This document shows positions 2,983 to 40,339 of a DNA stretch of 64,000 nucleotides, one piece after another. The notes under the pieces were generated by a model that had not been told where the DNA came from, did no database searches, and saw nothing but the letters and a program-made list of their open reading frames with translations. The translations under genes were made by a program, and so were the position numbers. Positions within the stretch are counted from its first letter, which is position 1, and each line of letters begins with the position of its first letter. Location of the stretch: the NCBI RefSeq assembly GCF_044324785.1, contig NZ_CP172127.1; one strand, written 5' to 3'. The DNA is from Escherichia coli. GTDB lineage: Bacteria; Pseudomonadota; Gammaproteobacteria; Enterobacterales; Enterobacteriaceae.

Positions 2983-3303
2983 TCAGGCTTTTTCTAGCGT
3001 ACACAGCAATGGATGCTCATTCTCCCTCGCGTACTTGTTCACCATCGCCACTTTGGTTTCTGCAACCTCGGCGGTAAAGACTCCGCAAATGGCCTTCCCC
3101 TGGTAGTGAACAGCGAGCATCAATTGCGTTGCACGTTCTACATCATAAGAAAAGAATTTTTGTAACACGTCAATAACAAACTCCATCGGAGTGTAATCAT
3201 CATTGACTAATATCACTTTATACATAGATGGCGGTTTTAGCGCGTCGCGAACTTTTTCTTCCGCCAGTTGATCAAAGTCCAGCCAGTCGTTCGTTTTACC
3301 CAT
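2983..3303 (-). CDS. clpS: Clp adaptor protein ClpS (106 aa)
   Basis: 106-aa ORF immediately upstream of clpA in the same orientation; sequence [13 protein letters not shown]... Confidence 0.95.
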
Positions 3304-9743: not shown

Positions 9744-10168
9744 ATCCCCTCCAGAAATATGTGACTTATCCTTTACGCTGGCAGTATAACGGGAAAGGCC
9801 TTACTAATACGTGATGACATCACATTTAAGCATGGCAAATGTCTGAAAAATGAGCGAATAATCGCGTTATACTCCCTCTTGCTGATAAGCCTGCAAAAAC
9901 AACAAAATCAAATAATTAGCATGATAAATTATTTTTTATTACGCCTAAAGGATTAAATCTTTCGCTTGCACTACACTGTCAATCAGACAAATGACTATAT
10001 GGGGCAACCCGCTGTTGCCCTAAATCAAATTTACTGGATTTATTTATCTGGCGAATGATTTGCCTTCGTTTTTAAAATAGCCGCGCATTATTTCCGTCGT
10101 CACTTTTTTACGACGACCCTATAAAACGACCATATTTTTCACAGGGTCAATTTTTAATTGAGGTGGAT

Positions 10169-11160: not shown

Positions 11161-11320
11161 GCACATGAAAGGAGCGCAACAATGCTAAACACTCATATAG
11201 AATTAAAAATCCCCCTCTGATGCATAACATTTCCTTTTAATTGCAACTTTACTCGTCCTTCCGCTTTCAGTAGTGTGTCATCGCGCATTTCGACTTCATC
11301 TTTGCAAGGACTGGGTTTTC

Positions 11321-12220
11321 ATGTTTTCTGGGCTGTTAATCATTCTGGTTCCCCTGATTGTGGGTTACCTCATTCCGCTTCGCCAAAAAGCTGCATTAAA
11401 AGTTATTAATCAGCTATTAAGCTGGATGGTTTACCTTATTCTCTTTTTTATGGGTATCAGTCTGGCGTTTCTCGATAACCTCGCCAGTAACCTGTTGGCG
11501 ATTCTGCATTATTCTGCCGTCAGTATTACCGTTATTTTACTGTGTAATATTGCCGCCCTTATGTGGCTGGAGCGAGGCCTGCCATGGCGCAACTACCACC
11601 AGCAAGAAAAACTCCCGTCGCGTATTGCGATGGCGCTGGAGTCGCTAAAACTGTGCGGCGTAGTAGTGATTGGTTTTGCCATTGGCCTGAGTGGACTGGC
11701 TTTCTTACAACATGCGACCGAAGCCAGTGAATACACCTTAATTCTGCTACTTTTCCTCGTCGGTATTCAGTTGCGCAATAATGGCATGACCTTAAAGCAG
11801 ATTGTCCTTAATCGCCGGGGAATGATTGTCGCCGTGGTGGTGGTTGCCAGTTCATTAATTGGTGGTTTAATTAACGCCTTTATTCTTGATCTTCCCATCA
11901 ATACCGCGCTGGCAATGGCCTCCGGTTTCGGCTGGTATTCTCTTTCCGGTATTTTATTGACCGAATCTTTTGGTCCGGTAATCGGGAGCGCGGCGTTTTT
12001 TAATGATCTGGCCCGTGAGCTGATTGCAATTATGTTGATCCCTGGGCTGATTCGCCGCAGCCGCTCTACCGCACTGGGCTTATGCGGTGCGACGTCGATG
12101 GATTTCACCCTGCCCGTTCTTCAACGTACTGGCGGGCTGGATATGGTCCCGGCGGCAATTGTTCACGGTTTTATTCTTAGCCTGTTAGTGCCGATCCTCA
12201 TCGCCTTTTTCTCTGCATAA
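11321..12220 (+). CDS. lysO: Lysine exporter LysO/YbjE (299 aa)
   Basis: Polytopic membrane protein starting MFSGLLIILVPLIVGYL; 299-aa form. Confidence 0.9.
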   Translation: MFSGLLIILVPLIVGYLIPLRQKAALKVINQLLSWMVYLILFFMGISLAFLDNLASNLLAILHYSAVSITVILLCNIAALMWLERGLPWRNYHQQEKLPSRIAMALESLKLCGVVVIGFAIGLSGLAFLQHATEASEYTLILLLFLVGIQLRNNGMTLKQIVLNRRGMIVAVVVVASSLIGGLINAFILDLPINTALAMASGFGWYSLSGILLTESFGPVIGSAAFFNDLARELIAIMLIPGLIRRSRSTALGLCGATSMDFTLPVLQRTGGLDMVPAAIVHGFILSLLVPILIAFFSA

Positions 12221-12253
12221 TACCTCTCTGGCGGTAGATCCCTGCCGCCAAAA

Positions 12254-12267
12254 TTGCGCTAAATCAA
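12254..12267 (+). promoter_or_regulatory. Candidate FNR half-site pair upstream of hcp (TTGCGctaaATCAA)
   Basis: Close to the TTGAT-N4-ATCAA consensus; hcp is known to be anaerobically induced. Confidence 0.35.
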
Positions 12268-12325
12268 TCTCCCTTAAAGTTGCATAAAAAATCCCTTTTA
12301 TCCCCGCGTTAAGCGTCTTAACCTT

Positions 12326-12348
12326 AAACATGTATATTAAATATAACT
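12326..12348 (+). promoter_or_regulatory. Candidate NsrR operator in the hcp leader (aacATGTATATTaAATATAactt)
   Basis: AT-rich inverted repeat resembling the NsrR consensus as I remember it; hcp-hcr is an NsrR target. Confidence 0.35.
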
Positions 12349-12363
12349 TTAAAAGGTGTGATC

Positions 12364-14016
12364 ATGTTTTGTGTGCAATGTGAACAAACTATCCGTACTC
12401 CGGCAGGAAACGGCTGCTCATACGCGCAGGGGATGTGTGGTAAAACGGCGGAAACCTCTGACCTTCAGGATTTACTCATCGCGGCGCTGCAAGGGCTTTC
12501 GGCCTGGGCGGTAAAAGCGCGTGAATACGGCATCATCAACCACGATATAGACAGCTTTGCGCCACGCGCATTTTTCTCAACCCTGACCAACGTTAACTTC
12601 GATTCTCCGCGTATTGTCGGCTACGCTCGTGAAGCAATTGCCCTGCGCGAGGCGCTGAAAGCACAATGCCTGGCTGTAGATGCCAACGCCCGCGTCGATA
12701 ACCCGATGGCTGACCTGCAACTGGTGAGCGATGATCTCGGCGAGCTGCAACGTCAGGCGGCAGAATTTACCCCTAACAAAGATAAAGCGGCGATTGGCGA
12801 AAACATTCTCGGCCTGCGTCTGCTGTGCCTGTATGGCCTGAAAGGTGCGGCGGCCTATATGGAACACGCGCATGTTCTCGGTCAATACGACAACGATATT
12901 TACGCCCAGTACCATAAAATCATGGCGTGGCTGGGAACCTGGCCTGCCGATATGAACGCGCTTCTTGAGTGTTCAATGGAAATCGGCCAGATGAACTTCA
13001 AAGTGATGAGCATTCTGGACGCAGGCGAAACCGGTAAATACGGTCACCCGACCCCAACCCAGGTCAACGTCAAAGCGACGGCAGGTAAATGCATTCTGAT
13101 TTCCGGTCACGATCTCAAAGATCTCTACAACCTGCTGGAACAGACCGAAGGCACGGGCGTTAATGTCTACACCCACGGTGAAATGCTGCCTGCGCATGGC
13201 TACCCGGAGCTGCGTAAATTCAAGCATCTGGTCGGTAACTACGGCAGCGGCTGGCAGAATCAGCAAGTGGAGTTCGCTCGTTTCCCTGGCCCCATCGTGA
13301 TGACCTCGAACTGCATCATCGACCCAACCGTAGGCGCTTATGACGATCGTATCTGGACCCGCAGTATCGTTGGCTGGCCGGGTGTGCGTCATCTGGATGG
13401 CGAAGATTTCTCTGCGGTCATCGCCCAGGCGCAACAAATGGCGGGCTTCCCGTACAGCGAAATTCCGCACCTGATCACCGTGGGCTTTGGTCGTCAAACG
13501 CTGCTTGGCGCAGCGGATACGCTGATTGACCTGGTAAGCCGTGAAAAACTGCGTCATATCTTCCTGCTTGGCGGCTGTGACGGCGCACGCGGCGAGCGTC
13601 ACTATTTCACCGATTTCGCCACCAGCGTGCCGGATGACTGTCTGATCCTGACTCTCGCCTGTGGTAAATATCGCTTTAACAAACTCGAGTTTGGCGATAT
13701 CGAAGGTCTGCCGCGTCTGGTAGATGCTGGTCAGTGTAACGATGCTTACTCAGCGATTATTCTGGCGGTAACGCTGGCAGAAAAACTGGGCTGCGGTGTC
13801 AACGATCTGCCGCTGTCGCTGGTGCTCTCGTGGTTTGAACAGAAAGCGATTGTCATTCTGCTGACACTGCTTTCTCTGGGTGTGAAAAATATCGTCACCG
13901 GCCCTACTGCACCAGGTTTCCTGACACCAGACCTGCTGGCGGTGCTGAACGAGAAATTCGGCCTGCGTTCTATCACCACTGTTGAAGAAGACATGAAGCA
14001 ACTGTTGAGCGCGTAA
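12364..14016 (+). CDS. hcp: Hybrid-cluster protein / hydroxylamine reductase Hcp (550 aa)
   Basis: N-terminal Cys motif MFCVQCEQT; length and sequence as in K-12. Confidence 0.96.
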
Positions 14017-14027
14017 GGAGTTTGTCG

Positions 14028-14996
14028 ATGACGATGCCAACGAATCAATGCCCGTGGCGGATGCAGGTTCATCACATCACGCAAGAAACGCCGGATGTGT
14101 GGACGATTTCCCTGATTTGCCACGATTACTACCCATATCGCGCCGGGCAATATGCACTGGTCAGCGTGCGAAACTCAGCGGAAACGCTGCGTGCTTACAC
14201 CATTTCCTCCACGCCAGGCGTCAGTGAATACATCACCCTGACTGTGCGGCGGATTGATGACGGTGTCGGCTCCCGGTGGCTGACGCGCGATGTAAAACGC
14301 GGTGATTATCTCTGGCTTTCGGACGCGATGGGGGAATTTACCTGCGACGATAAAGCAGAAGATAAATTCCTGTTGCTGGCGGCAGGCTGCGGCGTCACGC
14401 CGATTATGTCGATGCGTCGCTGGCTGGCGAAGAACCGTCCGCAGGCCGATGTGCAGGTGATCTACAACGTGCGTTCGCCGCAGGATGTTATTTTCGCCGA
14501 TGAGTGGCGCAACTATCCGGTGACGCTGGTGGCAGAAAATAACGTTACCGAAGGCTTTATCGCTGGTCGTCTCACTCGCGAACTGCTGACTCGCGTTCCT
14601 GACTTAGCTTCACGTACCGTGATGACCTGCGGCCCGGCTCCGTATATGGATTGGGTAGAGCAGGAAGTGAAAGCGCTCGGCGTGACGCGTTTCTTTAAAG
14701 AGAAATTCTTCACCCCAGTAGCGGAAGCGGCGACCAGCGGTCTGAAATTCACCAAACTGCAACCGGCACGAGAATTTTACGCCCCGGTTGGCACCACGCT
14801 ACTGGAGGCGCTGGAAAGCAATAAAGTTCCGGTTGTCGCCGCCTGCCGTGCAGGTGTTTGCGGCTGCTGTAAGACGAAAGTGGTTTCCGGTGAATATACG
14901 GTGAGCAGCACAATGACGCTGACCGACGCCGAAATCGCTGAAGGTTACGTGCTGGCCTGCTCCTGCCATCCGCAGGGAGATTTGGTTCTCGCATAA
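14028..14996 (+). CDS. hcr: NADH oxidoreductase Hcr (FAD/2Fe-2S; 322 aa)
   Basis: C-terminal ferredoxin motif CRAGVCGCC; 11-bp gap after hcp suggests an operon. Confidence 0.95.
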   Translation: MTMPTNQCPWRMQVHHITQETPDVWTISLICHDYYPYRAGQYALVSVRNSAETLRAYTISSTPGVSEYITLTVRRIDDGVGSRWLTRDVKRGDYLWLSDAMGEFTCDDKAEDKFLLLAAGCGVTPIMSMRRWLAKNRPQADVQVIYNVRSPQDVIFADEWRNYPVTLVAENNVTEGFIAGRLTRELLTRVPDLASRTVMTCGPAPYMDWVEQEVKALGVTRFFKEKFFTPVAEAATSGLKFTKLQPAREFYAPVGTTLLEALESNKVPVVAACRAGVCGCCKTKVVSGEYTVSSTMTLTDAEIAEGYVLACSCHPQGDLVLA

Positions 14997-40303: not shown

Positions 40304-40339
40304 AACTGAAGTTGCCCTGAAAATGAAATTTTTTTGCAC

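Follow-up and report, generated by a model that had tools for sequence, protein, structure and literature searches.

The FNR and NsrR motifs between lysO and hcp in an Escherichia coli chromosome are the published binding sites of the hcp-hcr promoter

The region upstream of hcp-hcr carries a site for FNR, an oxygen sensor, and an operator for NsrR, a sensor of nitric oxide. Both had been flagged by eye in an earlier note on this DNA, the first as a near-consensus FNR site and the second as an AT-rich inverted repeat resembling an NsrR operator. We found that both motifs are real and that they are the already known, published binding sites of these two regulators. We hold it as almost certain that they make up the well-characterised E. 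coli hcp-hcr promoter, in which FNR activates from -72.5 and NsrR represses from -6 to +17 until relieved by NO. The fit of these motifs to the known anaerobic and nitrosative-stress control of hcp is supported, since both assignments match published genome-wide binding data obtained on identical sequences. The literature on the identical sequence has shown the binding of FNR and NsrR in vivo, the dependence on FNR and the induction by nitrate or NO.

The window, i.e., the whole 64-kb stretch of DNA that was analysed, contains both motifs within the 143-bp spacer that separates the end of lysO (12220) from the start codon of hcp, with hcr ending at 14996 (Table 1). The segment 12150-12450 is 100% identical to an E. 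coli chromosome and was found in 5424 of 5426 complete E. coli genomes, where it is annotated as the junction of lysO and hcp. In the RefSeq annotation of the best-matching genome, the gene order is ybjD, aqpZ, lysO, hcp, hcr, poxB, ltaE. The comparison with the hcp-hcr promoter of E. coli K-12 (Filenko 2005, via Myers 2013; Rodionov 2005; Partridge 2009, via Mehta 2015) reveals one and the same locus: the sites, the -72.5 geometry and the order of the genes all agree, and the published FNR 14-mer and NsrR 23-mer of hcp occur in the window without any difference. In the best-matching genome (E. coli N3; L082 2561-3586), aqpZ and lysO are separated by a gene for an IS110-family transposase. The gap between these two genes in the window is too small for an insertion of that size, which points to strain-level variation beside the locus.

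Table 1. Features of the lysO-hcp spacer, with positions counted from the first nucleotide of the window.
Feature	Position	Strand	Remarks
NarL/NarP-like 7-2-7 inverted heptamers TACCTCT-ct-GGCGGTA (candidate)	12221-12236		centre 12228.5 = -104.5
9-bp stem-loop UGGCGGUAG-AUCC-CUGCCGCCA	12229-12250	+	starts 9 nt past the stop codon of lysO and ends 3 nt short of the FNR site
FNR binding site TTGCGCTAAATCAA (same 14-mer as TTGCGctaaATCAA)	12254-12267		centre 12260.5 = -72.5 from the transcription start
NsrR-like site II AAGTTGCATAA-a-AAATCCCTTTT (whole AAGTTGCATAAAAAATCCCTTTT; candidate)	12277-12299		centre about -45, overlaps the putative -35 region
Weak -35 region TTTTAT (putative)	12296-12301	+	placed by spacing, 17 bp upstream of TAACCT; TTTT conserved, rest variable
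-10 hexamer TAACCT (putative)	12319-12324	+	-14 to -9; sole well-placed hexamer with T1, A2 and T6
NsrR operator, site I AACATGTATATtAAATATAACTT: 11-1-11 inverted repeat AACATGTATAT-t-AAATATAACTT	12327-12349		about -6 to +17, centre +6
hcp transcription start	12333 (+/-1 nt)	+	computed from the published FNR position (-72.5) and the site centre (12260.5)
Shine-Dalgarno AAGG	12353-12356	+	read from the sequence
hcp start codon ATG	12364-12366	+	start of hcp in the RefSeq annotation (12364); ATG aligned in 79/79 orthologues

The FNR site lies exactly where the earlier note had placed it, about 100 bp from the hcp ATG: its centre is 103.5 bp upstream of the start codon. The site agrees with the TTGAT-N4-ATCAA core at 8 of 10 positions, with a perfect right half (ATCAA) and a left half (TTGCG) that fits at 3 of 5. 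We scored it with a position weight matrix (PWM) built from 61 ChIP-seq-supported sites (Myers 2013, Table S6), from which the hcp and aqpZ sites were excluded. The resulting 12.75 bits fall within the range of the training sites (11.7-21.2) and rank fourth in the window. The same site appears in Myers 2013 (PMC3688515) as its reverse complement, TTGATTTAGCGCAA. It lies beneath a ChIP-seq peak of FNR and has a PatSer score of 13.11 and an ln p of -11.6 that passes the threshold of -10.75. Occupancy by FNR on the identical 14-mer was seen there by both ChIP-seq and ChIP-chip, and hcp-hcr is classed in category 1 (directly activated by FNR), with the site at -72.5 (Table 1 of that work, citing EcoCyc and Filenko 2005).

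The inverted repeat is an NsrR operator (hereafter site I). It had been placed at 12326-12348; the element stands, but its coordinates shift by one base to the right. With a PWM made from 25 sites (Mehta 2015, Table 4; hcp excluded), site I scores 25.7 bits and is the top match in the window. No equal score was found in 2e7 random positions, AT-rich background included (P < 5e-8). In the genome of CFT073, the reverse complement of this 23-mer (AAGTTATATTTAATATACATGTT) is the second-best 11-1-11 NsrR site, outscored genome-wide by ytfE only, with an ln P of -23.87 that passes the threshold of -14.28 (Mehta 2015, PMC5320621). The PWM scores and these published values thus uphold both motifs. The same study reports a ChIP-seq peak of NsrR over the hcp site in CFT073 (12-fold enrichment), cites a ChIP-chip hit for NsrR at hcp in K-12 and gives a 43.7-fold induction of hcp by nitrate. 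When mapped via the CFT073 locus, the published summit (967971) falls at position 12336 of the window, 2 bp from the dyad centre (12338). The Phcp::lacZ fusion pNF383 is in use to monitor NsrR and NO in the cytoplasm.

The transcription start of hcp is placed around 12333 by the published position (-72.5) of the FNR site, which is centred at 12260.5. This position is second-hand, as Table 1 of Myers 2013 itself relies on EcoCyc and Filenko 2005. Relative to this start, the FNR site has a class-I-type position and the NsrR operator straddles +1, so that both are at functional distances. The value of -72.5 also agrees with the invariant TA..CT hexamer that we take as the -10 element: T12319, A12320, C12323 and T12324 do not vary in 76 species, where the hexamer reads TAACCT, TAATCT or TACCCT. 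This putative -10 is followed by an 8-nt discriminator. A generic scan for sigma-70 promoters in 12100-12500 gave no strong promoter, as expected for an activator-dependent promoter, for which such a null result is uninformative. An induction of hcp by OxyR has been proposed and is also disputed in the literature. A bioRxiv preprint on an antisense RNA at an hcp promoter was set aside, as it concerns HcpR of Bacteroides and is irrelevant to this locus.

The conservation of the spacer across Enterobacteriaceae singles out the same two elements. A scan of one genome per species yielded 80 loci whose Hcp is 89-99% identical, 78 of them with enough upstream sequence, i.e., 79 loci compared when the window is included. 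In 69 of the 79 species the FNR 14-mer is unchanged, and each of the remaining 10 carries a single substitution. Site I shows few variants, mostly at its central positions. The distance between the centres of the two sites is 77.5 bp in 75 species, whereas the distance to the ATG drifts (-24 to -31). In an ungapped profile anchored on the FNR site (76 species), the information is near maximal in both sites and low in 12300-12316. Conservation of the two elements across the 79 species thus greatly exceeds that of the spacer around them. Both blocks had been noticed upstream of hcp in 8 enterobacteria and attributed to FNR and NsrR (Rodionov 2005). The non-consensus left half-site (TTGCG instead of TTGAT, 12254-12258) is itself kept in 77 of the 79 species; such retention suggests selection for a deliberately weak FNR site or for an overlapping function.

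Could both motifs be consensus matches that arose by chance in this AT-rich spacer and play no part in regulation? The FNR score (P ~1.8e-5 per position) should occur about 1.1 times in 64 kb, four such matches are seen in the window, three other sites scoring as well or better, and the left half-site agrees at only 3 of 5 positions. Yet within the 143-bp spacer only 0.002 FNR matches and fewer than 1e-5 NsrR matches are expected, and the 14-mer and the spacing are maintained in most of the species while the neighbouring positions vary freely. The ChIP-seq peaks published for both proteins on these sequences effectively refute such a coincidence, whose probability we regard as negligible.

Two other readings concern what the conserved elements do. 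The operator might be conserved mainly as an element of the core promoter, of the initial transcribed region or of the 5'-UTR, or as a site for IscR, IHF or Fis, with incidental binding of NsrR. It spans the start and most of the 31-nt leader, so that promoter escape, mRNA stability or translation could conserve it, and NsrR is in the Rrf2 family with IscR. However, the conserved positions follow the pattern of the NsrR half-site on either arm, ytfE alone scores higher genome-wide and the ChIP summit is at most 2 bp from the dyad centre. Moreover, a permissive search of 12100-12500 matched no Rfam family, the leader included. We therefore judge this reading very improbable. The same low credence goes to the idea that hcp is mainly transcribed from another promoter, e.g., one dependent on sigma-E, in which case FNR would not be at -72.5 of the relevant start. 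Myers 2013 (PMC3688515) found no sigma-70 ChIP peak at hcp and mentioned a report of sigma-E dependence, and another paper lists hcp among the genes common to the NsrR and RpoE regulons. Nevertheless, the + strand of 12151-12420 has no match to the sigma-E consensus (GGAACTT-N15-17-TCNAA) with up to 3 mismatches. The rigid 77.5-bp spacing and the invariant TA..CT hexamer fit a single FNR-dependent sigma-70 promoter, and the absent sigma-70 peak may reflect continued repression by NsrR in nitrite-free medium.

An FNR-dependent sigma-70 promoter gated by NsrR, which we favour, would work as follows. Under anaerobiosis, dimeric [4Fe-4S] FNR binds TTGCGCTAAATCAA at its class-I-type position and activates the weak promoter, presumably via the C-terminal domain of the RNA polymerase alpha subunit (alpha-CTD). 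When bound to site I, [4Fe-4S] NsrR would block access to the start site and to the downstream end of the core promoter, probably by steric hindrance. Transcription would thus stay off, even with active FNR, until NO, a product of nitrate or nitrite respiration, nitrosylates the cluster of NsrR and the protein leaves the DNA. The relief of NsrR repression by NO follows from the established chemistry of its Fe-S cluster and is consistent with the use of the pNF383 reporter and with the induction by nitrate. Two further candidates probably modulate the response: a NarL/NarP site centred at -104.5 and another NsrR-like site around -45.

This second NsrR-like element (site II) scores 19.8 bits, above the median of the training sites, and is the second-best NsrR match in the window (P ~1.5e-7 per position; 1.6e-6 with an AT-rich background). 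Its left half is the 'possible NsrR site' (AAGTTGCATTA in CFT073) of Table 2 in Mehta 2015 (PMC5320621), where the printed distance of '11' appears to be a garbled 77. In 60 of the 79 species it is the best second site and lies exactly -50 bp from site I. Its scores range from -2 to 25 bits across species: it is strong in Escherichia, Kluyvera, Klebsiella and Raoultella, and decayed in Enterobacter, Lelliottia, Kosakonia and Salmonella. The window differs from CFT073 by three SNPs in the spacer (12241, 12286 and 12294), of which two are inside site II. The resolution of the NsrR ChIP peak is too coarse for sites 50 bp apart.

The NarL/NarP-like pair has 2 mismatches to TACYYMT-NN-AKRRGTA (left heptamer 7/7, right heptamer 5/7). 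Such a match is weak alone, as 8 equally good ones occur in the 64 kb, yet in 71 of the 79 species the pair is the best upstream match, 32-34 bp from the FNR centre. The position of -104.5 agrees with the one reportedly given for a Nar site at hcp by Chismon et al. 2010. Control of hcp-hcr by NarP in enterobacteria was predicted by Rodionov 2005. The right heptamer is also the 5' arm of a hairpin that abuts the FNR site, and its conservation therefore cannot be credited to NarL/NarP alone. The RNA of this hairpin has a folding energy of -16.5 kcal/mol (z = -4.2). The structure can form in 71 of the 79 species, with loops that vary in sequence and length, and its stem shows compensatory pairs at 12235:12244 (UG in 40 species, UA in 27, CG in 4) and 12237:12242 (GC in 62, AU in 3, CG in 3, GU in 2). 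We considered that GGCGGTA...TRCCGCC could be a palindromic protein-binding site and rejected this in favour of base pairing, given the loop of 3-5 nt and the covariation of the stem pairs. A scan for terminators in 12100-12500 flagged nothing; the hairpin escapes it because no U-tract follows, and it is not a canonical terminator. It may be a 3'-end hairpin of lysO or an insulator.

We thus tentatively raise the possibility, which we think has less than an even chance of being right, that the promoter has two conserved elements beyond its standard description. One would be a second NsrR operator around -45 that gives a lineage-specific tightness to the control by NO; the other would be the covarying hairpin, insulating hcp from lysO read-through or explaining the conservation of the 'Nar site'. 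Either of them may already be described.

The comparison with known systems sets the hcp promoter in context. It resembles the class I promoters of FNR and CRP, with a single dimer site well upstream of the -35 and on the face expected for a contact with the alpha-CTD. Sites at -61.5 or beyond typically act through the alpha subunit alone and are rare among FNR targets (Myers 2013, PMC3688515). Whereas most FNR-activated promoters are class II, with sites around -41.5 (Myers 2013), hcp is among the few with a site around -72.5, and has a non-consensus left half-site. As for NsrR, the operators of ytfE and hmp (AAGATGCATTT-n-AAATGCATCTT) share with hcp the 11-1-11 dyad, the 1-bp spacer, the overlap with the core promoter and the repression relieved by NO. 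Unlike theirs, the arms at hcp are more AT-rich and less symmetric, with 7 of 11 symmetric positions (AACATGTATAT versus AAGTTATATTT), and hcp has a second NsrR-like element 50 bp upstream. In the nrf and nir promoters (PMC5434802), where FNR and NarL/NarP co-activate in response to nitrite, the activation by FNR is joined to a 7-2-7 pair of NarL/NarP heptamers that lies further upstream, an arrangement that the candidate pair of hcp would share. In contrast to these, the Nar-like site of hcp is weak (2 mismatches) and its right heptamer is shared with the conserved hairpin.

The matrices also matched other positions of the window. The best FNR match is TTGCCCTAAATCAA (10015-10028; 13.8 bits), between ybjD and aqpZ and upstream of the latter, which is the published aqpZ/ybjD ChIP-seq site TTGATTTAGGGCAA (Myers 2013, Table S6, PMC3688515). 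It is one base off the hcp site and has the same spacer. The hypothesis that the two sites arose by duplication was rejected, as their flanks have no similarity. Two other matches score slightly above hcp, TTGACTAATATCAC (3203-3216; 13.4 bits) and GTGATTTGTGTCAA (30150-30163; 13.15 bits), and were not found in the part of Table S6 of Myers 2013 that was consulted. As these two outscore hcp, the FNR PWM score alone does not discriminate functional sites. For NsrR, matches of about 14-17 bits occur at 11227-11249 (ACATTTCCTTTTAATTGCAACTT), some 70-95 bp upstream of the annotated lysO start, and at 40309-40331 (AAGTTGCCCTGAAAATGAAATTT); both are absent from the published list of 11-1-11 NsrR sites.

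A reading of the sequence by eye thus recovered a textbook module, the anaerobic activation by FNR gated by the NO-sensing NsrR at the gene of the hybrid cluster protein, and the two sites bring no new biology. The marginal value of the analysis lies in the comparative data: the rigid 77.5-bp geometry, the sub-optimal FNR half-site that is kept, the lineage-variable site II and the covarying hairpin next to the FNR site. They refine a well-studied promoter in small ways that can be tested.
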